Origin: a virus
Lineage: Duplodnaviria; Caudoviricetes
DNA length: 25,206 nucleotides
IMG/VR virus record: IMGVR_UViG_3300037483_000030
Coordinates: 1 to 25,206 of that record
Reading direction: 5' to 3' (one strand)
The notes under the pieces are model-generated. The model did not search any database, was not told where the DNA came from, and saw only the letters and a list, made by a program, of their open reading frames with translations. The first letter of the stretch is position 1; every line of letters starts with the position of its first letter. Below are positions 1 to 25,206 of this stretch, piece by piece. The translations under genes and the position numbers were made by a program.

Positions 1-2
1 AA

Positions 3-350
3 GGACAGCGCAAGAAACTTCCCGCCGCCACGGTTCGGGTGCAGGCCAGCGCCGGATTCAAGATCGGGGCGAACCAGCCCGACGGTGCGGCGCAGAGTCC
101 GATACAGGTTGCCCCGGAATGGAACGATATGAAGGACGCCCCCATCGAGAGCGAGGCTCCGTTTGGGAGTTCTGTGCTGCCACTCTATACGGGCGATTTG
201 AGGGTTCCGCTACCGGGCGGTTATGACCGTAAGGGGCAGGTGGCTATCCAACAGACGTTGCCGTTGCCGTTAAACGTGTCGGCGATTATCCCAGAGATTT
301 TCCCCGGCGACACGCCTCAACTCAAAGTTCAAGGCGGTGGTGGAGAATGA
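3..350 (+). CDS. Tail tubular protein B / nozzle (T7 gp12-like), C-terminal fragment, 5' truncated by the window
   Basis: Frame is open from base 3 (GQRKKLPAATVRVQAS...). C-terminal PLYTGD...GGYDRKGQVAIQQTLPLPLNVSAIIPE resembles podovirus tail tube B ends, and the gene sits before the ejection genes. Confidence 0.75.
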   Translation, partial: GQRKKLPAATVRVQASAGFKIGANQPDGAAQSPIQVAPEWNDMKDAPIESEAPFGSSVLPLYTGDLRVPLPGGYDRKGQVAIQQTLPLPLNVSAIIPEIFPGDTPQLKVQGGGGE

Positions 351-9346: not shown

Positions 9347-9955
9347 TTATTCTCGGCGTCGTAAGGCGGCTCGGTAACGATGCAAGAAATGATCCATGAT
9401 ACCACCCGGATTCTCGGGGTGTGTGAGACGTATTTCGTCGCCGACGTGACGGTAACGTAGGATCAAGAGAGCGCTCGGCGGAACATGCGGCACCGGATCG
9501 TGGCCGTTGACGTATCGTTCCACGGGGAACCTGCACCGATTAGCGAGGGCCGAGAACCCAGCGCGCGGCGATCCAAACGTAATCAGTTTGACCACGTTGA
9601 CCCCAGCGGTTTTTAATAAAGCCGCCAAGATGGTGGCCTCAGCCGCACCCTTGGAATGACCGCAGACGATGACCCGTTCGGCGGCATATACCCGTTGCAG
9701 GATGGCTGGATATGCGCTACGGGCGGACTTGAAGAACCCGATGTGGCAAAAACATTTTAGTTCCGGGGAACGCCACGGCAGGGTGCGGAGGTTACGAACC
9801 CAATCCTCGGCCTCGTCGGAACCGCCGATGGCGACGTATCTTGTACCGTCAACATCCTGAACCGCGCACTCCAAGTCTCCGATCTCGATAGGTTTAATTT
9901 CCGCGTCGTAGACGGATTGAATTAAATCGGCGGCGGTTTCGGCTTCGTCGGTCAT
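9347..9955 (-). CDS. Class 3 lipase (alpha/beta hydrolase)
   Basis: HIGF, GHSKG nucleophile elbow, TFGSPRAG, NGHDPVPHVP and C-terminal DH..Y give a Ser-Asp-His triad. Start moved to ATG 9955 (202 aa) because the longer ORF runs through the promoter region. Confidence 0.88.
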   Translation of the reverse strand: MTDEAETAADLIQSVYDAEIKPIEIGDLECAVQDVDGTRYVAIGGSDEAEDWVRNLRTLPWRSPELKCFCHIGFFKSARSAYPAILQRVYAAERVIVCGHSKGAAEATILAALLKTAGVNVVKLITFGSPRAGFSALANRCRFPVERYVNGHDPVPHVPPSALLILRYRHVGDEIRLTHPENPGGIMDHFLHRYRAALRRRE

Positions 9956-9969: not shown

Positions 9970-9992
9970 CGGCGCAGAAATAAAAAAAGGTG

Positions 9993-10021
9993 TTGACGTA
10001 ATGCACCGTATCGGTAATCAT
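9993..10021 (+). promoter_or_regulatory. Sigma70-type promoter for the rightward accessory operon
   Basis: A-tract (UP-like) upstream, then TTGACG, 17 bp, AATCAT (weak -10). AGGAGG SD at 10038-10043. Confidence 0.55.
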
Positions 10022-10049
10022 CGTGATATAGAAAGAAAGGAGGAACCAC

Positions 10050-10844
10050 ATGTCCGATATTTCAGTAGAAGACCTAATCACATACCGCGACGATCCAGTT
10101 AAGATGGTCGCCGATTTGTTTGGCGCAGTCCCTGATCCTCGCCAGGAAGTAATCTTGCGTGCGTTTCCGTCATCGCCACGTCTCGCAATTCAAGCTGCTG
10201 CTGGAGTTGGGACAACGGCATGTCTGGCTTGGCTGGCATGGAATTTCCTGCTGACGCGGATTGATGCCCGTATCGGCGTAACCTGCGTCCCCAATCATAA
10301 CCTGCATGAATTTTGGAATGAACTGAAAAAATGGCATGACGTTTCCGATGTTTTGCAGAACCGTTTTGAGTTCACCAGAAAATATGCGCAATCCAAGGAA
10401 CGCCCTGATATATGGCGTATGGACATGCGCCCATTGAGCGGGGCATCTACCGTCGATGAAATAAACGAGCGCCTTATCGGTGTATCTGGCGACCATATTA
10501 TGTGGATAATCGACCATGCTGAACACGCGCCATCTTTTATACTCACCATCATTAAAAGTATTTTTCAGGTGTCCGATGTCGATGCTCGTATCATTATCGG
10601 TGGGACGCCAAGCAAGCATAATGGTTCCATTCCTTACCAAGTCGCAGTGACCGAACGCGATGCTTGGAACGTCATCAAAATCACGTCTGATCCCGACTCC
10701 GCAGATCGCAGCACGCGCGTTCCCGTGGAATATGCCAGACAACAGATCGAGCAGTATGGCCGCGATTGCCCATTGGTAATTAACAACATCCTTGGAGAAT
10801 TTTTACATATCCAAGCAACGCAGAAAAATAGGCAGTCATCGTGA
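10050..10844 (+). CDS. Truncated terminase large subunit ATPase-domain paralog with degenerate Walker A/B and no nuclease domain
   Basis: TerL N-domain pattern DPV..V.DLFG..PD..Q, GVGTT (for GxGKT), LAWLAWNFLL, IIDH (for IIDE), GGTP and EYARQQIEQYGRD...ILGEF. It stops 13 codons after GEF. Confidence 0.8.
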   Translation: MSDISVEDLITYRDDPVKMVADLFGAVPDPRQEVILRAFPSSPRLAIQAAAGVGTTACLAWLAWNFLLTRIDARIGVTCVPNHNLHEFWNELKKWHDVSDVLQNRFEFTRKYAQSKERPDIWRMDMRPLSGASTVDEINERLIGVSGDHIMWIIDHAEHAPSFILTIIKSIFQVSDVDARIIIGGTPSKHNGSIPYQVAVTERDAWNVIKITSDPDSADRSTRVPVEYARQQIEQYGRDCPLVINNILGEFLHIQATQKNRQSS

Positions 10845-10867
10845 TATATAGTAGGGAGTGAAATTAA

Positions 10868-11182
10868 ATGACTGAAACATGGAAAAGTTATATTAAGAAA
10901 GAAATGAGAAAACACCGAGAAAAAATTGCAGATATCGTGGAGATGTCTGTTGAGAAACAGCGTCAATGGACATCCGATCCTTCAACTCCAATCTTGGGCA
11001 GAGAATGGATGGATGTTGAGCACCAAAACGAATACGCTCTTGTAAGGGCAGCGTCCTTCACCATATGGACATCCAAGAGGGTCTATTTCCCGGCTGGATA
11101 TGATGGCAATGTGAGTGTCGCATCCGTCTCCCGTGATCCTGACGGTATGCCTACGCCTTACGTCGGAGGGGGGTGTGAATGA
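10868..11182 (+). CDS. Hypothetical phage protein
   Basis: GGGAG SD; FTIWT..RVYFP..YDG..V.SVSRDP resembles a recurring phage protein of unknown function; ATGA-coupled to the next gene. Confidence 0.65.
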   Translation: MTETWKSYIKKEMRKHREKIADIVEMSVEKQRQWTSDPSTPILGREWMDVEHQNEYALVRAASFTIWTSKRVYFPAGYDGNVSVASVSRDPDGMPTPYVGGGCE

Positions 11183-11754
11183 CTAACATCGCAGCCGCCG
11201 ACCCGTTCACCGATGATCTCGACTCCGCCCCGGCGTATTCGCGGGCCGCATTCGATTTCTACCCGACGCCGCAGAGCATCATCAAGGTGCTGCTATCAAG
11301 GTGGCATCCGATGCGCGGGTTGGTATGGGAGCCATGCTCAGGGGATGGCCGCTTCGTCGAAGCCCTGCGCGGCGCTGGTATCGAAGTTGTCCACGGAGAC
11401 ATCCAGACCGGGGAGAATTTTTTCACCACGTCCAAGGCTCCGGCTCCGGTCATCGTGACGAACCCACCGTTTCAGCATATCAGAAAGTTCATCGACCACG
11501 CCTTCGCCATTGGCGTACAGGAGATGGCCTTGGTCGGGCCGGAGCGATTATGGGCATCCCGTGTTGGCCGTTGCCAGTTTGAGCGCCACCGTCCCTCGGT
11601 CTGGGCCAACATGGACTGGCGTGAAGATTATCTCAACAAGGGTGGTTCACCGGATCGCGCCCTAGCCGTCGGTATCTGGGGAAGCCCATGTGCGGCGACG
11701 TGTGAATTTCAGGTCTGGCCGAAGCCGGATGAACATCCGTCACTGTTTTATTGA
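11179..11754 (+). CDS. Small amino (N6-A/N4-C) DNA methyltransferase
   Basis: DFYPTP, SAM-binding motif I WEPCSGDG, catalytic motif IV IVTNPPF. Confidence 0.8.
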   Translation: MTNIAAADPFTDDLDSAPAYSRAAFDFYPTPQSIIKVLLSRWHPMRGLVWEPCSGDGRFVEALRGAGIEVVHGDIQTGENFFTTSKAPAPVIVTNPPFQHIRKFIDHAFAIGVQEMALVGPERLWASRVGRCQFERHRPSVWANMDWREDYLNKGGSPDRALAVGIWGSPCAATCEFQVWPKPDEHPSLFY

Positions 11755-11769
11755 TTTGGAGTATGAGCG

Positions 11770-12000
11770 ATGAGCAAGAAGATTGAGACGCCTGATAAAA
11801 TAGAACCTCCTGTGTTGGACCACCAAATAATTATTGGTAAGTGCGGGATACTAATCAGTGAATCCGATCTGCGCCGTATAGAAGAACTTGTTGTTGATAC
11901 GGATAACAAATTAACGGAACTTTTTGTGCAGCCGCTTATTGGCAGGGCGCTCTCAATTATACGCCGCAGGGAATTACTAAAATCGGAGCAAACGAAATGA
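11770..12000 (+). CDS. Hypothetical protein
   Basis: GGAG SD, in-operon packing, ATGA overlap with the next gene. Confidence 0.55.
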   Translation: MSKKIETPDKIEPPVLDHQIIIGKCGILISESDLRRIEELVVDTDNKLTELFVQPLIGRALSIIRRRELLKSEQTK

Positions 12001-12239
12001 GCGACCTTGTTGAACGTTTAACAAATAGCAACCCGACAGAAAGTTCGCACGAACTTGCTTGCCGATGCGGTGAAGCAGCTATCGAAATTTGTCATTCCCA
12101 AGCACTCAACACAATTCTGCTGGAGGCATTAGAAGCGTTGTGCGATGCAACTAGAATCAAGGATGACATCAAAGCCATGGGCATACGCTGCGGAATTGCC
12201 GCATCCGCCATAGCCCACGCCAAGGAGGGGATGAAATGA
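11997..12239 (+). CDS. Hypothetical protein
   Basis: GGAG SD; MSDLVERL start and LLEALE..AIAHAK end are typical of small phage accessory ORFs. Confidence 0.6.
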   Translation: MSDLVERLTNSNPTESSHELACRCGEAAIEICHSQALNTILLEALEALCDATRIKDDIKAMGIRCGIAASAIAHAKEGMK

Positions 12240-12631
12240 AGAAACATGATACTTTAGAAAACGCTCCAATAGGCGACATTCTCAAGGACATAATCAATGG
12301 CTTTGGCAATGGTAATGAAGGAGACATTGGATTGTTACCTTTTTACGATCCAGACGGAATCCTTATTGACTGCTTTCTCTATCTGCACATCGGACCAACT
12401 TGGAAAAGAGAATTTCCAATTGGTACGGCAGATGTAGTTTCCGCTGCGTTTGAAAAACTTGCTTCTGCCAATCCTATGAATAAGCCACTCGTAAGTTCTT
12501 CACGAATATTAACGGAAGCCTTTGATAAGGAGAGAACGCGCGCCAAAAAGCTGCTTGAACTGCACACTGGCTCAAGAAAAGAAGATGTTGATAAATATCT
12601 GCATTCGTTTAATCAACAACCGTTGAATTGA
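12236..12631 (+). CDS. Hypothetical protein, tandem paralog 1
   Basis: AGGAGG SD; aligns by eye with 12643..13014. Confidence 0.7.
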   Translation: MKKHDTLENAPIGDILKDIINGFGNGNEGDIGLLPFYDPDGILIDCFLYLHIGPTWKREFPIGTADVVSAAFEKLASANPMNKPLVSSSRILTEAFDKERTRAKKLLELHTGSRKEDVDKYLHSFNQQPLN

Positions 12632-12642
12632 TGGGGGATGAA

Positions 12643-13014
12643 ATGAAAACTCGAAGCGAAAACTTGGCCGACATCTTGAACGACATCGTTGATGCCATCA
12701 TTGAAAATGGAGCCTACGATACCGGGATCGTCCCGATGTGGGATGCCGACGATAAATTCTCGGACTGCCACATCATGCTGAACGCCGGGGATACATATCG
12801 TAAAGTGTTCCCCCTAAAAACGGCGGAGATTTTGGCCGTGGCATTTGAAGAAATGGGGGCCATCCAAGACGGCGCAGATCATAACGATGCTCGAAATCTC
12901 GCCGCCAATCTGCTGGAGGTTATCGGAGCGGCCAAGGAAATGATCGAGCGCCGTCCGACGATGGCCGAGGTCAAAGAGGAACACGCCCAGAAATATCTGG
13001 CGACGTTGAATTGA
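12643..13014 (+). CDS. Hypothetical protein, tandem paralog 2
   Basis: Start moved to ATG 12643, which has the same GGGGATGAAATGAA context as paralog 1; aligns with it. Confidence 0.7.
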   Translation: MKTRSENLADILNDIVDAIIENGAYDTGIVPMWDADDKFSDCHIMLNAGDTYRKVFPLKTAEILAVAFEEMGAIQDGADHNDARNLAANLLEVIGAAKEMIERRPTMAEVKEEHAQKYLATLN

Positions 13015-13021
13015 GGGAAAT

Positions 13022-13369
13022 ATGGCCGACAAAGATAAACAATGGCTATCCAATTTACGGGCGTTGGCGACCGCTGCGACCTGCCATGAATGGATTGTTG
13101 AGGAAAGCAAAAACATGGGCGAAACTTGGCCCATTGGGTCTATTATTGATTGCGGTTCAGCGGAAGGCGAAGGACAAACCTATTCTAAGTTCATCGTAAC
13201 AACTGATGGGGTTAGGGGAAGTCAGCTTAACAGCGGAAGCGCCAAAGACGATGCACAATTCATCGCAGCCATGAACCCCGTGGCAACAATCAAGCTGCTA
13301 AACATGATTGACATGCTCGTTAAAGACGCCATCACCCCCGAACGCCTAAACCTTTTGCTGAAAGGGTGA
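13022..13369 (+). CDS. Ead/Ea22-like accessory protein
   Basis: LRALATAAT..EW...DAQFIAAMNP...LL pattern; GAGG SD. Confidence 0.55.
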   Translation: MADKDKQWLSNLRALATAATCHEWIVEESKNMGETWPIGSIIDCGSAEGEGQTYSKFIVTTDGVRGSQLNSGSAKDDAQFIAAMNPVATIKLLNMIDMLVKDAITPERLNLLLKG

Positions 13370-13375
13370 TGTGAC

Positions 13376-13633
13376 ATGACCCCAGGACAAAAGAGATGGC
13401 TTGAAAAATTGCAATCCAGCGGGCGTCAGAGCCGCCCCAGATATGGGGCTTTACCGTGTAGCGTTTGCTATCGTAACGGGTGGACAAAAGCAGTTTGTAT
13501 CGACACTCAAACGGGCGAAGAAATTACAAAAGAACAATTGATCGCTCGTAAATTTGATGGCTGCCACTTCGAAGAAATTATTACAGCAGAAGGGGTAGCT
13601 GTTTTAAAAGAGAATGTAAATAATAAAGGGTGA
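13376..13633 (+). CDS. Hypothetical protein, possibly winged-helix-like
   Basis: MTPGQKRWLEKL...RNGW...ITAEG..VL; tight operon packing. Confidence 0.55.
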   Translation: MTPGQKRWLEKLQSSGRQSRPRYGALPCSVCYRNGWTKAVCIDTQTGEEITKEQLIARKFDGCHFEEIITAEGVAVLKENVNNKG

Positions 13634-13636
13634 GCT

Positions 13637-13843
13637 ATGAACAACCTCTTCATCGCAGTTGCAATCTGGTTTTCCCCGATCAATGGAGAGATAACCGAAA
13701 CCGCACTAATTGACGATACCCCCAGGTATCTTGATGAGTGCCTCAAGATCGCAAAACAGGTCAAGGGCGACGGCGCGGTCGGGGCTTGTGTGGACGTCAG
13801 GGAGTTTAAGCGAACCCCGACCGTCACAGGCGACGCATTTTAG
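13637..13843 (+). CDS. Small hypothetical protein with hydrophobic N-terminus and a Cys pair
   Basis: LFIAVAIWF, EC...ACV; operon packing. Confidence 0.5.
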   Translation: MNNLFIAVAIWFSPINGEITETALIDDTPRYLDECLKIAKQVKGDGAVGACVDVREFKRTPTVTGDAF

Positions 13844-14160: not shown

Positions 14161-14237
14161 TGGTCTGAGCGGCTGGATTTGAACCAACGGCCTCCTGCAC
14201 CCAAGGCAGGCGATCTACCAGACTGATCTACGCTCAG
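14161..14237 (-). tRNA. tRNA-Pro(UGG) with encoded CCA
   Basis: 77-nt cloverleaf: acceptor CTGAGCG/CGCTCAG-A-CCA, D stem GATC/GATC, anticodon stem CCTGC/GCAGG with loop CT-TGG-GT, T arm GTTGG-TTCAAAT-CCAGC. C1:G72 and A73 are Pro identity elements. Confidence 0.96.
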
Positions 14238-16664: not shown

Positions 16665-16679
16665 TATGCACCGTATGAT
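16651..16679 (+). promoter_or_regulatory. Rightward sigma70 promoter (replication operon)
   Basis: TTGACG-17 bp-TATGAT, followed by an AGGAGG SD at 16698. Confidence 0.82.
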
Positions 16680-17035: not shown

Positions 17036-17539
17036 ATGAAACTCCCCTCACGTATAACCGCATTTCTGCGGGATCGCCTGCTGCGTGTCGCCGACCGCCG
17101 TCCGCCGGACTGGATCATCGGGGCCGAGACTCCGGTGCCTTATATGCGGCGCTGGTGGATTATTCCTCGGAATAGATTCCTCAACATTTATATCCATCAC
17201 TTCCAGCGCAGCGATGATACATTGGAACTGCACGACCATCCTTGGGCGAATATGTCCGTGGTGCTGAAAGGTGGGTATGTTGAGGTTATGCCGATGCGCG
17301 GAACAGACCCGAAGGATCGTGACTGGCACTACCGTATCAGCCGCACCGCTGGCGATGTGGTCGTTCGGTGGGCGTCTGCTCCACATCGGGTAGAGGCTCT
17401 GAGGTGGAGCCACCCTGGATACGGCTCAGGCGCATGGACCCTATTCATCACCGGTCCTCACGTCCGCGAGTGGGGCTTCTGGACCAAGACAGGATGGAAG
17501 CACTGGCGCGATTTTGTCGGGGGCTGCTGCGAAGAATGA
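17036..17539 (+). CDS. Cupin-like metal-binding phage protein
   Basis: Start moved to ATG 17036 (GGAG SD). LHDHPW..SVVLKGGY.E...HRVE...WTLFITGP..REWGF. Confidence 0.7.
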   Translation: MKLPSRITAFLRDRLLRVADRRPPDWIIGAETPVPYMRRWWIIPRNRFLNIYIHHFQRSDDTLELHDHPWANMSVVLKGGYVEVMPMRGTDPKDRDWHYRISRTAGDVVVRWASAPHRVEALRWSHPGYGSGAWTLFITGPHVREWGFWTKTGWKHWRDFVGGCCEE

Positions 17540-20022
17540 CTGTGAATCTGCACCCATTTCAGGCCGACATCATAAACGAGGTCAGGGCAGGTATGCGAAG
17601 CGGCATCCGTGCCCAGTGCGTAGTCGCTCCGACAGGGGCGGGAAAGTGCCTTGGAAAAGGAACTCCCGTCATGATGTACGATGGGCAAATCGTGCCCGCG
17701 GAAGAAATCAGGAACGGCGACTTGGTGATGGGGCCAGATAGCGCACCAAGAACTGTGAAGGGAGTCACCAAAGGGGTTGGTCCGCTTTTCAAGATTACCC
17801 CTGTCAAAGGCGATTCCTATATCGTCAACGATGCCCATATTCTCAGCTTAAAACGTACTGCTGAGAAGGCCGGAGACACGCGCAAAGGAACTATTGTTAA
17901 TATTTGTGTTCGTGATTTTTATGAAACTAACACTTGGTTTCGCCACGTTCACAAAGGATGGCGGGCTCCGATTAATTTTCAAGGCGAATGCGATCTTCCT
18001 ATAGACCCATATTTTCTTGGCCTTTGGCTTGGTGATGGAACGTCTAGGACATCAGGAATAACCACTGGCGATAAAGAGATTGTGCAATGGATATGCGGAC
18101 ATGCAGAGCGTATCGGTATGCGGATTAGTTTTCATGAACAGCGCGGCAATTGCATCGAAGTTAATACGGTTAGTCACATGGATAAACCACGTTCTTCATC
18201 TTTGCAGGCGTTGATGCGGTCACACAATCTGTTGGGAAATAAACACATACCGCATATTTATAAAACCGCATCACGCGAGAATCGGCAAATTCTACTGGCT
18301 GGAATGTTGGATTCCGATGGATACCTGTCTAAGGGTGGCTTTGAGGTCGTATTTAAGGTAGAGAAACTATTTGATGATCTCTTGTTTCTTGCCCGATCAC
18401 TTGGGTTCGCTGCATATAAAAAAGAAACGCAAAAAACATGCACCAATACCAATGCAACTGGAACCTATTATCGGTGCTATATCACCGGAGATTTTTCAGA
18501 GATTCCGTTTTTGCGTAAGCGCCATTTAAATATTCCACTGCGCGCACAAAAAAAAGACCATCTGGTAACTGGGTTAAAGGCTGAACCAGCCGGATTGGGA
18601 GAGTATTTTGGGTTTGAGTTAGAGGGTCCGGATCGTTTATTTCTTCTCGGTGATTTTACGGTAACTCACAATACCGTGATGACTGCCAACATGCTCGGCA
18701 CCGCCGCAGAACGCGGGACTCCATCGCTCTTTTGCGTACATAGACGTGAGTTGCTTTCGCAGAGCACCAACACATTTAATTTCGGCGGCATCCCCCACGG
18801 CATCATCGCGCCGGGGTTCGCGCCCGACTCCATCCATCCGATTCAAATCGGTTCGATACAGACCCTATCGCGGCGACGGGACAGGCTGCGGAGGCCGAAG
18901 CTGATCGTTATTGATGAAGCGCACCACTTGGCGGCGAAGACATGGGAAGCCCTGATTGAGGCGTTCCCCGACGCATGGCTGATCGGGCTGACGGCGACAC
19001 CGGAGCGGACGGATGGCAAGGGACTCGGTAAATATTTTCAACGCATCATCCAAGGCCCATCGGTGCGGTGGCTGATCGACAATAATTATTTGTCCCCATA
19101 CACCCTGTACGCGCCGGGCGCACCTGATCTTAGGAAGGCCCACACCCGCATGGGCGATTATGTGCAGGCCGAACTCGCCGCTGAAATGGACAAGCCCACT
19201 GTGACCGGAGACATGATCCGGCATTATCAGAAACATGCCGCTGGAAAACGCGCCATATTACGTGCCGTTTCGGTTGAACACTCCAAACATATCGCGGCTC
19301 AGTTCTGCGCCGCCGGGATCGTTGCGGTTCATGTTGACGGCGACACGCCGACGAATGAACGCGAATCGGCGATGGAGAATTTTAGAGCCGGGCACATAAA
19401 GGTCTTGACAAACGTGGATTTGTTCAGCGAAGGAGTCGATGTGCCAACGGTGGAGTGCGTCATCGACGGCAGGCCGACGCAATCGCTGACGCTGTGGCTG
19501 CAATTCTGTGGGCGGGCGCTGCGATATATTCCGGGTAAAACTGCAATCATCTTGGATCACGCCGGAAACGTGCAACGCCACGGCTTGCCCGACGAGGAAC
19601 GGGTATGGTCACTCGAAGGTCGTGAAGGTCGCCAGAAAAAATCCGCAGCGTCGGAGGTTAAAATTAAACTCTGTCCGGGCTGCTACGCGGCGCAACCACC
19701 GGGCGGTACGGTGTGCCGGTTCTGTGGCACCCCGTTTGTCGTCGAAGGCCGCGCCGTGGATTACGTCGAAGGCGAGTTGCAGCAGATTGATCCAGCCGTA
19801 TTTAAGCGCCAACACGTCGATGCGTTTAAGGCCAGCCTTGGTGCCGGGATGCAGCCCGTCGAGGCTGCCTACGACTTGGCGAATCGGCTGGGCGGAAACG
19901 TCCAAGAACTTGAATACCTGTTGAGGATGGCGAAGAAGACGAACAAGAAACCGTCTTGGGCGGCGCACGTCTTTGTCGCCAAGATGCAGAAGCGAAACGC
20001 GAAGAAGGAAGGGAGAGTGTGA
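17536..20022 (+). CDS. SF2 DEAH helicase with C-terminal Zn ribbon, interrupted by an intein
   Basis: Start moved to ATG 17536 (ATGA overlap). Q motif LHPFQ, APTGAGK/T split by the intein, DEAHH, GLTATPER, LFSEGVDVP, QFCGRALR, CPGC/CRFC. 828 aa precursor, 486 aa after splicing. Confidence 0.93.
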   Translation: MTVNLHPFQADIINEVRAGMRSGIRAQCVVAPTGAGKCLGKGTPVMMYDGQIVPAEEIRNGDLVMGPDSAPRTVKGVTKGVGPLFKITPVKGDSYIVNDAHILSLKRTAEKAGDTRKGTIVNICVRDFYETNTWFRHVHKGWRAPINFQGECDLPIDPYFLGLWLGDGTSRTSGITTGDKEIVQWICGHAERIGMRISFHEQRGNCIEVNTVSHMDKPRSSSLQALMRSHNLLGNKHIPHIYKTASRENRQILLAGMLDSDGYLSKGGFEVVFKVEKLFDDLLFLARSLGFAAYKKETQKTCTNTNATGTYYRCYITGDFSEIPFLRKRHLNIPLRAQKKDHLVTGLKAEPAGLGEYFGFELEGPDRLFLLGDFTVTHNTVMTANMLGTAAERGTPSLFCVHRRELLSQSTNTFNFGGIPHGIIAPGFAPDSIHPIQIGSIQTLSRRRDRLRRPKLIVIDEAHHLAAKTWEALIEAFPDAWLIGLTATPERTDGKGLGKYFQRIIQGPSVRWLIDNNYLSPYTLYAPGAPDLRKAHTRMGDYVQAELAAEMDKPTVTGDMIRHYQKHAAGKRAILRAVSVEHSKHIAAQFCAAGIVAVHVDGDTPTNERESAMENFRAGHIKVLTNVDLFSEGVDVPTVECVIDGRPTQSLTLWLQFCGRALRYIPGKTAIILDHAGNVQRHGLPDEERVWSLEGREGRQKKSAASEVKIKLCPGCYAAQPPGGTVCRFCGTPFVVEGRAVDYVEGELQQIDPAVFKRQHVDAFKASLGAGMQPVEAAYDLANRLGGNVQELEYLLRMAKKTNKKPSWAAHVFVAKMQKRNAKKEGRV
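17647..18672 (+). mobile_element. Intein with LAGLIDADG homing endonuclease (342 aa)
   Basis: Begins CLGKGTPVMM; block B VNDAHILSL; blocks C/E PYFLGLWLGDG and LLAGMLDSDG; ends DFTVTHN with +1 Thr; visibly more AT-rich than the exteins. Confidence 0.95.
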
Positions 20023-20025
20023 GTT

Positions 20026-20544
20026 ATGGAGGATAATATTATTAAACCGATTGCACCGCTAGAACGTGTCGCCCTCGACTCCGCCCGCGACATCGCGCTA
20101 CGAAACTTCGTCCGTGAGAGCAACCGCATCGAGGGCATCCTGCGGGAACCGACGCCGCAGGAAATCGCGGCGCATGAACGGTTACTGTCTAGGTCGCAGA
20201 TCACGGTTCTGACGCTGACTGAATTTGTTGCCGTCGTCGCCCCCGGAAAACCGTTGCGTGATAAACTCGGAATGAATTGCCGAGTCGGGAAATATGCGCC
20301 GCCTCTGGGCGGTAACGAAGTCGTTCATCGTCTGCGAGAAATTCTCTGGAACGAAAACAACGCGACAAGAACACCGTGGGAAATTCATTGCCTCTATGAA
20401 ACGCTACACCCCTTCATGGATGGCAATGGCCGTTCCGGTCGTGCGCTGTGGCTCTGGATGATGGGTGGCCCTGAGAACGTGCCGTTGGGGTTCCTGCATA
20501 CGTTTTATTATCAGACGCTGGAAAACAGCGAGGGGAGGAAGTGA
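20026..20544 (+). CDS. Fic-domain protein (putative AMPylase)
   Basis: Canonical HPFMDGNGRSGR motif, plus N-terminal SNRIEG matching the (S/T)xxxE(G/N) inhibitory helix. Confidence 0.9.
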   Translation: MEDNIIKPIAPLERVALDSARDIALRNFVRESNRIEGILREPTPQEIAAHERLLSRSQITVLTLTEFVAVVAPGKPLRDKLGMNCRVGKYAPPLGGNEVVHRLREILWNENNATRTPWEIHCLYETLHPFMDGNGRSGRALWLWMMGGPENVPLGFLHTFYYQTLENSEGRK

Positions 20545-24439: not shown

Positions 24440-25206
24440 GTCCGTACCTCCGGTTTAAAAATTGATAGATCGTCGATTGCATACGTCCAAGCATTTGCTT
24501 GGAGTGCCGTAGTCATTTCAGGTGGCACCGGCAGCGCAAACTCTCGGCCAGTTCCACACAAAACACGTAGAAATTTCTCACGCCCACTATCGGGTAGCGT
24601 GACCTCGATAAGTTCACCAACCATAGGGTCATCGTCCTTATCAACAGTCACAGCATCAAGCCTGGACAGGATGTTGGCCCACCCCAGAATCTCACATGCA
24701 GCGCGGCGCTGTTCAACATTTTCCCATTGTAGCGCGATCTCCGGCGTCAGAGAAGCCTTGTCCTCGATCCATTCTCCGGGGATGCGAACCCCGCGCCATG
24801 AAAATAGCGAATAGCCGTCGCGGTACAGAATTGCCGGACCGTCCTCACAGTGCAGAGTAGCACCATCATCGATTTTGATAATTTCGGGCCTATCCGTGAT
24901 GATGCAAAACTTCTCAAACGGGTAAACAAGCCCGCAAGATTTAACGATCTCGCAGTGATCGAAAAGGGCGGCTTCCGACTTGTCATCGTAAGTCACACCG
25001 AGGCGTCTGCCGGTTTCGTAAAAACCCCAATATCCGGCGTCCCACGATCCATAATGCCACGTACCCGTAAAGCGTAATTGCTGGCCCCAAAGCTGGCCCC
25101 AAAGCTGGCCCCAAAGCTGTCCCCAAAGCTGGTCCCCAAGCTGGCCCCAAAGCTGGCCCCGAAGCTGGCCCCGAAGCTGGCCCCCAAGCTGGCCCCAAAG
25201 CTGGCC
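24436..25206 (-). CDS. DUF6745-like protein with GQL(W/R/G) repeats, 5' truncated by the window
   Basis: The frame of the 186-aa ORF stays open to base 25206 (GQLW...QQLRFTGTWHYGSWDAGYWGFY). C-terminal LHCEDGPAI.Y.DG..L..WRGV.IP, NVEQRR, LPVPP...A..A.AWTY. Confidence 0.8.
   Translation of the reverse strand, partial: GQLWGQLGGQLRGQLRGQLWGQLGDQLWGQLWGQLWGQLWGQQLRFTGTWHYGSWDAGYWGFYETGRRLGVTYDDKSEAALFDHCEIVKSCGLVYPFEKFCIITDRPEIIKIDDGATLHCEDGPAILYRDGYSLFSWRGVRIPGEWIEDKASLTPEIALQWENVEQRRAACEILGWANILSRLDAVTVDKDDDPMVGELIEVTLPDSGREKFLRVLCGTGREFALPVPPEMTTALQANAWTYAIDDLSIFKPEVRT
25081..25206. repeat. 12-bp tandem repeat CTGGCCCCAAAG, 10.5 copies, running off the window end
   Basis: Five exact full units, five variant units and a half unit; encodes tetrapeptide repeats on the minus strand. 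Confidence 0.97.

Follow-up and report, generated by a model that had tools for sequence, protein, structure and literature searches.

Introduction

Why should a tailed phage carry, in addition to its large terminase (TerL), a shortened copy of the same protein from which the active-site residues have been lost? The question is raised by a 25,206-nt stretch of Caudoviricetes DNA (IMG/VR record IMGVR_UViG_3300037483_000030, positions 1 to 25,206, called the window below). At 10050..10844 this DNA contains an open reading frame for a 264-aa TerL paralogue, which has the ATPase core and the lid and lacks the nuclease domain (coordinates refer to the plus strand of the window unless stated otherwise). 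TerL is of interest beyond packaging: phages can neither do without it nor alter its active site, and for this reason it serves the immune receptors Avs1-3 and Upx as their trigger. The original prediction, made from the DNA letters alone, was that the gene encodes a repurposed pseudoenzyme that could act as a decoy for such receptors, as a poison of competing phages, or as a timer of the phage's own packaging.

In what follows, we will show that short, dead TerL copies of this kind are real, conserved and recurrent. We will also argue, more tentatively, that the decoy is the best of the available readings.

Results and Discussion

The 264-codon frame is open throughout. The predicted model of the protein (pLDDT 81.5, predicted template modelling score 0.83) has as its top structure matches in the Protein Data Bank (PDB) the terminases of T4 (gp17), HK97, Sf6 and P74-26 (E 7e-10 to 4e-7), and its best match in a viral structure library, at a template modelling score of 0.85, is again a terminase ATPase domain. 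The fold that had been read from the sequence is thus confirmed. Pfam and PDB sequence searches gave no match for the short paralogue, and PHROG 5902 was matched at 3e-21; the intact TerL described below matches the same PHROG family.

Of the features of an active TerL, the ASCE ATPase fold with its lid is present, whereas the Walker A lysine, the catalytic glutamate and the RNase H-like nuclease are absent. Walker A reads GVGTT (10203..10217), with both glycines retained and the lysine changed to Thr55, and in Walker B (10512..10517) Asp155 is retained while the catalytic glutamate has become His156. Both substitutions are found where the original prediction had placed them, and two further losses can be added. 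Ser146 (10485..10487) replaces a near-invariant histidine ahead of Walker B, and Thr186 (10605..10607) replaces the invariant asparagine of a G-N-P motif, the likely equivalent of which in D6E, N169, bonds the P-loop lysine (PMC5727402). The chain ends 13 residues past GEF251, as had also been noted, and full-length relatives extend some 200-280 residues further. The lid (residues 211-252, 10680..10805) was assigned from its position ahead of the linker. Judged by these residues, the short paralogue is a pseudoenzyme that would be unable to act as a working motor subunit, and for this reason it likely acts by binding.

It is important to consider whether the gene could be a pseudogene in decay, a product of faulty assembly or one half of a split terminase, an explanation to which we give very little credence. 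An assembly error near 10800 had been named as a risk, and none is seen in the contigs of the sequencing runs. A contig of run X1, which may be the source of the record, spans the stop codon with 0 differences, and the Walker parts are unchanged in runs X2 and X3. The stop codon of a second allele, P0002, is likewise confirmed by contigs in another study.

All four sediment runs contain a second sequence that has window positions 10725-10765 and continues as a normal TerL. A scan with this shared stretch led to two further records, G002 (36,053 bp) and G003. The window itself comes from a linear virus record with a completeness of 53%, and it gave no further match. Its first 127 nt (1..127) overlap the end of G002 exactly (100% over 127 nt), and at its other end a 12-nt tandem repeat (25080..25206) continues at the start of G002 (92-95%). 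The window and G002 probably form one circle of about 61 kb, with a putative junction at the repeat. G002 encodes a TerL of 503 aa, with GPGKS, DE and GNP motifs and the nuclease half, to which the short paralogue is 41% identical over 238 aa. This terL is located ahead of the portal gene, and the record also has a TerS-like gene as well as genes for a scaffold or protease and for capsid and tail proteins. The possibility that the short gene is the only TerL of the genome, with its nuclease encoded separately, is thereby rejected: no terminase nuclease match was obtained in the genes downstream of it, and a full-length terL is found in G002. An intact terL in fact coexists with the short copy in both cases with known context, the second being P0123 on record G001, where the product of the intact terL is 34% identical to P0123.

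We now turn to the homologues. Among 230 protein ids from the searches, 11 short proteins were picked by length and motif, and the counts for the lysine and the glutamate are therefore partly circular. With this in mind, the lysine at position 55 is present in 2/11 short proteins compared to 116/117 full-length TerLs, and Glu156 in 2/11 compared to 120/120. For Asn186 the corresponding numbers are 0/10 and 120/120, and for His146 they are 0/11 and 119/120. Q32, G52, G54 and D155 are retained in all 11. Ten of the 11 end 1-16 residues past position 251 (P0173 is a fragment of 185 aa, and in the case of P0048 the short contig may have truncated the protein), while ten control proteins, also short but keeping the lysine and the glutamate and passing position 251, end 27-81 residues later. 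Similarly cut mutants, which the original prediction had proposed to look for, have thus been recovered. Several clusters of terminase-like proteins of 230-280 aa, which may be dead copies or fragments, lie near the query in the ESM Atlas.

The short proteins are 23-46% identical to each other (58-62% for the allele pair P0001/P0002) and 36-46% identical to full-length TerL, that is, as close to it as to each other, and no new motif common to them was found beyond the TerL residues. These numbers bear on the possibility that the TerL fold serves as a scaffold for binding another partner or ligand, for example to sequester nucleotides or to engage a protein of the host. The adenine-binding glutamine, the P-loop glycines and the Walker B aspartate, kept in 11/11, would suit such a role, and the functions of the stand-alone proteins vs.8, Ksap1 and Ksap2 are left open by their authors (PMC13601566). 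Against it stand the lack of a new shared motif and of a closer mutual similarity; we consider this explanation unlikely.

Decay is difficult to reconcile with the same set of sequences. Frames stay open across 23-62% identity, with a common end point and targeted losses, while in neutral point-mutation runs the frame remained open to 62% identity in 8/2000 cases and to 41% in 0/2000. Column conservation in the short proteins also tracks that of full-length TerL (Spearman 0.49). What speaks for decay is that variable columns hold only a slight excess of the differences between P0001 and P0002 (p 0.06-0.08). With the short homologues at hand, no assembly error seen and an intact terL on the adjoining record, the view of a repurposed pseudoenzyme is supported.

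The retained similarity is unevenly distributed. The N-terminal helices are at 0.95 and the lid at 0.89 of the identity level among full-length proteins, compared to 0.60-0.71 for residues 71-210, and the least kept part is residues 126-190 (0.60). In T4, the N-terminal helices and the lid form one subdomain. The short form may have one origin or several: FastTree groups ten short rows (0.96), IQ-TREE with the C20 model requires 5 changes for the short form, or 4 without the lid, and the approximately unbiased test gave a p value of 0.14. A recent duplication from the phage's own terL is unsupported and was rejected, because the grouping of P0001/P0002 with that TerL (98/97) disappears once the lid is removed.

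The genome context was seen for 2 of the 11 short members and, via contigs, for the P0002 allele, whose DNA is known as 11 listed differences inside the frame. A degenerate Walker A pattern without the lysine gave 0 matches in viral contigs and only 2 plus 2 chance matches in metagenomes and genomes. A single-protein scan for loci of short members gave none, and alignment scans gave full-length terL only (35 and 80 loci, one of the scans covering the best 80 of its 149 confirmed stretches). Two of 13 new loci, L150 (9947-10762) and L153 (2154-2954), contain terminase-like frames of 267-272 aa of another terminase type; these have intact Walker motifs and no nuclease half, and are perhaps vs.8-like or split genes.

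What would such a protein bind? The reading that we prefer, with chances that we put somewhat short of even, is that the short paralogue is a decoy that would bind TerL-sensing (Avs-type) receptors without activating them. It is the best reading because the lesions match the activation checks of both Avs2 and Avs3, and because the gene has an accessory, fast-changing pattern. Avs2 is reported to contact the TerL ATPase domain via an ATP held by the Walker A lysine, and a second ATP touches the catalytic glutamate, sensor mutations at this place weakening activation (10.64898/2026.08.25.746987; PMC13601566). SeAvs3 requires both TerL domains (10.64898/2026.08.25.746987).

In the proposed mechanism, early transcription from the promoter at about 9990-10030 would supply the short paralogue before the real TerL is made. 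It would not hydrolyse ATP and would hold the gamma-phosphate poorly. Its shape would still fit the sensor pocket, since Avs-type sensors accept terminases that are less than 10% identical. The ATP-bridged contact that Avs2 checks through the Walker A lysine and the catalytic glutamate would fail, and so would the nuclease contact checked by Avs3. Sensors occupied in this way would not oligomerise once the real TerL appears. The accessory status of the gene, its variable slot behind a conserved promoter and the occurrence of two alleles in one sample are traits resembling those of counter-defence genes.

The decoy reading is further supported by the recurrence of similar losses in an unrelated P1-like copy of PacB. 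In a PacB search, a second place was found in 3/175 matching phage records. One of them, the P1-like MH422554.1, has a second PacB copy (AXF39147.1, annotated as terminase large subunit) that is 35% identical to PacB and has lost the Walker A lysine, the Walker B Asp-Glu and the histidine before Walker B, with a well-kept lid. Like the short paralogue, it is an optional second copy of the ATPase half. It differs in having 364 aa and a C-terminal extension, in belonging to another TerL clade and in coming from a temperate phage-plasmid.

Several observations weigh against the decoy. Bare ATPase domains of 5/5 terminases activate EcAvs2, bare ATPase domains activate Upx even with Walker B mutated, and the stand-alone T4 protein vs.8 is toxic together with EcAvs2 (PMC13601566). 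Since bare ATPase domains activate the sensors, the short copy could be a trigger and not a shield. The lost ATP contact may also weaken binding as much as activation. Moreover, the likely contacts to the C-terminal sensor part of Avs2, as placed by offset from the catalytic glutamate without superposition, fall in the least-kept residues 126-190. One of the short homologues, P0123, retains both the lysine and the glutamate and has lost only the histidine and the asparagine. Finally, no known anti-defence gene was recognised beside the short paralogue in the window, where no anti-defence library was searched.

A different role is suggested by the DNA of the lid. A 41-nt tract at 10725..10765 is identical to the intact terL of G002. 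Inside it 13/13 codons are identical, compared to 27/77 elsewhere (Fisher p 7e-6), and the longest shared run in 300 synonymous re-draws is 27 nt, compared to the observed 41; the tract was spotted first and the statistics were applied afterwards. In run X2 it forms a separate 41-nt contig with a depth of 20.7, approximately the sum of the depths of its flanks, as expected of a real two-copy repeat. The same tract is present in the terL of G003. Gene conversion, in one direction or the other, is the likely source. In the G001 pair there is no such tract, and the longest run of 9 nt equals the null median of 9.

The short paralogue could accordingly be a cap or mask on the phage's own TerL: it would attach to a free TerL monomer by the kept lid face, and the decayed opposite face would recruit no further subunit, such that TerL is hidden from sensors or ring assembly is delayed. 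The latter variant includes the timer of the original prediction. The cap agrees with the well-kept N-terminal helices and lid (0.95 and 0.89 of the family level, against 0.60-0.71 in the core) and with the DNA identity of the lid tract to the own terL. It is also in line with the linker bundle of phi29, which touches the adjacent subunit (PMC7617512), and with the Avs sensors, which appear to target monomers (PMC13581612). However, the second phage (G001) does not have such a tract, and RecET, acting where the two genes are most alike, may have caused the conversion as a side effect. One would furthermore expect a gene that regulates the phage's own motor to belong to the core, yet none of 18 near-complete relatives has the short copy, and the timer in particular is weakened by this accessory status. 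Inactive subunits also slow the T4 motor (PMC8589836), which would be costly to the phage. Altogether, we find the cap improbable, on a par with the scaffold for another partner. A predicted complex of the short paralogue with the G002 TerL gave a median score of 0.24 (mark 0.32); controls were not folded, and the result is evidence neither way.

Less probable still is a dominant-negative poison aimed at related phages in the same cell, whose packaging rings it would join or whose TerS or portal it would bind. Dead subunits do join the T4 motor and slow it (PMC8589836), conflicts between phages are known to strike at packaging (TerI, 10.1101/2025.02.27.640495), and the diversity of alleles is compatible with conflict. 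The best-matched target is nevertheless the phage's own TerL, and the nuclease domain, which faces the portal in HK97, phi29 and T7 (PMC7617512), is missing in the short paralogue. The integrase profiles PF00589 and PF00239 gave no match in the window or G002 (controls were positive in 14/14 and 13/14 genomes), and there is no sign of a lysogen in which the poison would act, although lysogeny may come about by other routes. The lack of a tyrosine or serine integrase weakens a poison of the prophage type.

Considering the decoy again in a more general form, it is conceivable, and in our view only slightly less likely than the decoy itself, that phages repeatedly make lid-cut TerL pseudoenzymes without the residues read by Avs2 and Avs3, with the lid matched to the working terL by gene conversion, and that these mimic a conserved viral pattern and block bacterial NLR-like receptors. 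A family that keeps the fold without the ATP and nuclease features would then show phage mimicry against sensors of this kind, and its 11 natural variants are a ready panel for separating sensor binding from activation. If the short paralogue binds TerL instead, it would be a natural inhibitor of the packaging motor.

Comparison with Known Systems

The short paralogue shares the ASCE fold and lid, the Q motif, the P-loop glycines and the Walker B aspartate with the large terminases (T4 gp17, Sf6 gp2, HK97, P74-26, D6E). It differs from active TerL in lacking the Walker A lysine, the catalytic glutamate, the motif asparagine, His146 and the nuclease, and in being accessory and outside the packaging module. 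The parent clade is PHROG 5902/PHROG 2, as in Xanthomonas phage CP2-like podoviruses, and the short paralogue is 36-37% identical to the terminases of 16 Xanthomonas and Xylella phage records.

The literature searched, which excludes most subscription papers, showed no report on a dead TerL paralogue. What is known is the kind, namely stand-alone TerL ATPase paralogues, and the closest published case is T4 vs.8, which likewise is a stand-alone terminase ATPase homologue beside an intact terminase (PMC13601566). It differs in that Walker A and B are retained and in being toxic with EcAvs2 (PMC13601566); the short paralogue also belongs to another TerL clade. Ksap1 and Ksap2 have a terminase-like structure, are tied to Avs2 and have been suggested to be anti-defence proteins, but are described as small, without clear TerL sequence homology and as activating Avs2 (PMC11564622, PMC13601566); for Ksap2 the structural likeness to a terminase is reported as weak only (PMC11564622). 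The present family is relevant to the role of vs.8 and of the Ksap proteins.

TerI of the Listeria prophage phi10403S is also phage-encoded and acts at the packaging level, a likeness that counts only if the poison reading holds; it is a prophage defence protein accompanied by anti-TerI immunity proteins (10.1101/2025.02.27.640495), whereas the short paralogue is derived from TerL and no integrase was found. Of the anti-Avs proteins described in 10.1101/2025.06.06.658234, one is a ligase and the other has a Rossmann fold. It should also be noted that genes of the present type carry the annotation terminase large subunit (P0047, AXF39147.1), by which trees based on TerL can be misled.

Genomic Context

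The short paralogue heads a run of small genes, behind lysis genes and a divergent lipase gene, and thus sits away from the packaging module, as had been described: its neighbours are the lipase and small accessory genes. An AGGAGG Shine-Dalgarno-like site (10038..10043) is present 6 nt ahead of the ATG, also as predicted. The sigma70-type promoter that had been proposed fares less clearly. The sigma70-like site at 9993-10021 matches 9/12 positions and does not exceed chance, as there are 2 such sites compared to 5.6 expected from shuffled sequence. The likely promoter stretch around it (9982..10033) is, on the other hand, unchanged (52/52 nt) in one soil contig with a depth of 2.5 and different flanks, which then switches to another ribosome site and ATG, seemingly of a different reading frame. 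The slot behind this conserved promoter thus seems to be filled otherwise in another phage. From the promoter and the context of the locus, early transcription of the short paralogue is inferred; no RNA run is listed among the runs that contain the window sequence.

That the gene is accessory follows from its absence in relatives. It is missing from 38/38 larger relatives' records, picked from those with the 83 closest terL loci, of which 18 are at least 90% complete (0/18 with the short copy). A second match in G010 was rejected, as it is the end of a terL at a contig edge and not a short copy. Run X2 contains the window allele alongside a second one (62% identity) that resembles P0002, including the P0002 stop. 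In the latter, window positions 10804-11229 are replaced by a different sequence, which takes the place of a 104-aa gene. In G001, P0123 closes a run of small genes, near an RtcB-like gene; this RtcB-like RNA ligase gene and an HNH gene separate P0123 from the intact terL (L138 826-2791).

Some short repeats were noted by eye around the gene. A 13-bp direct repeat flanks it exactly, with the left copy at 10018..10030 and the right copy at 10836..10848, overlapping the stop codon. An 11-mer at 10001..10011 has an exact second copy at 16666-16676, in a divergent control region with recET and Cro-like genes, and is a possible shared operator; with two mismatches allowed, it is not above chance.

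The lipase gene (class 3, PF01764, E 7e-19) lies on the minus strand at 9347..9955, directly after the lysis genes. It has a good extended -10 element about 6 nt ahead of its ATG and is perhaps leaderless. Downstream of the short paralogue, small accessory genes occupy 10868..13843, among them those for the 104-aa protein, a DNA methyltransferase-like protein and a weakly Ead/Ea22-like protein. A tRNA-Pro(TGG) gene (14161-14237, minus strand) separates the converging accessory and recET operons. Further downstream, a DEAD-type helicase gene (17536-20022) has an intein with a homing endonuclease in Walker A, and a small Fic/DOC family gene (20026-20544) is located among the replication genes.

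The 12-nt repeat at the end of the window (25080-25206; L134 1-270 in G002) breaks the assembly, and on the minus strand it encodes a repeat rich in Gly, Ala and Ser with which a gene ahead of a DUF6745 gene starts. In G002, the TerS-like gene and terL are 5 kb apart, with opposite-strand genes between them (L134 8336-10294), and the terL region also holds a DNA methyltransferase gene with a long overlapping frame. The same record has three tandem paralogues of the PHROG 394 tail protein, one of them with two matched stretches (L135 11750-14342). The terL of the close relative G003 seems to have an intein end just past Walker A (L136 41-1390). The host may be an alphaproteobacterium, as suggested by the GcrA-like gene of G002 and the MucR-like gene of G001.
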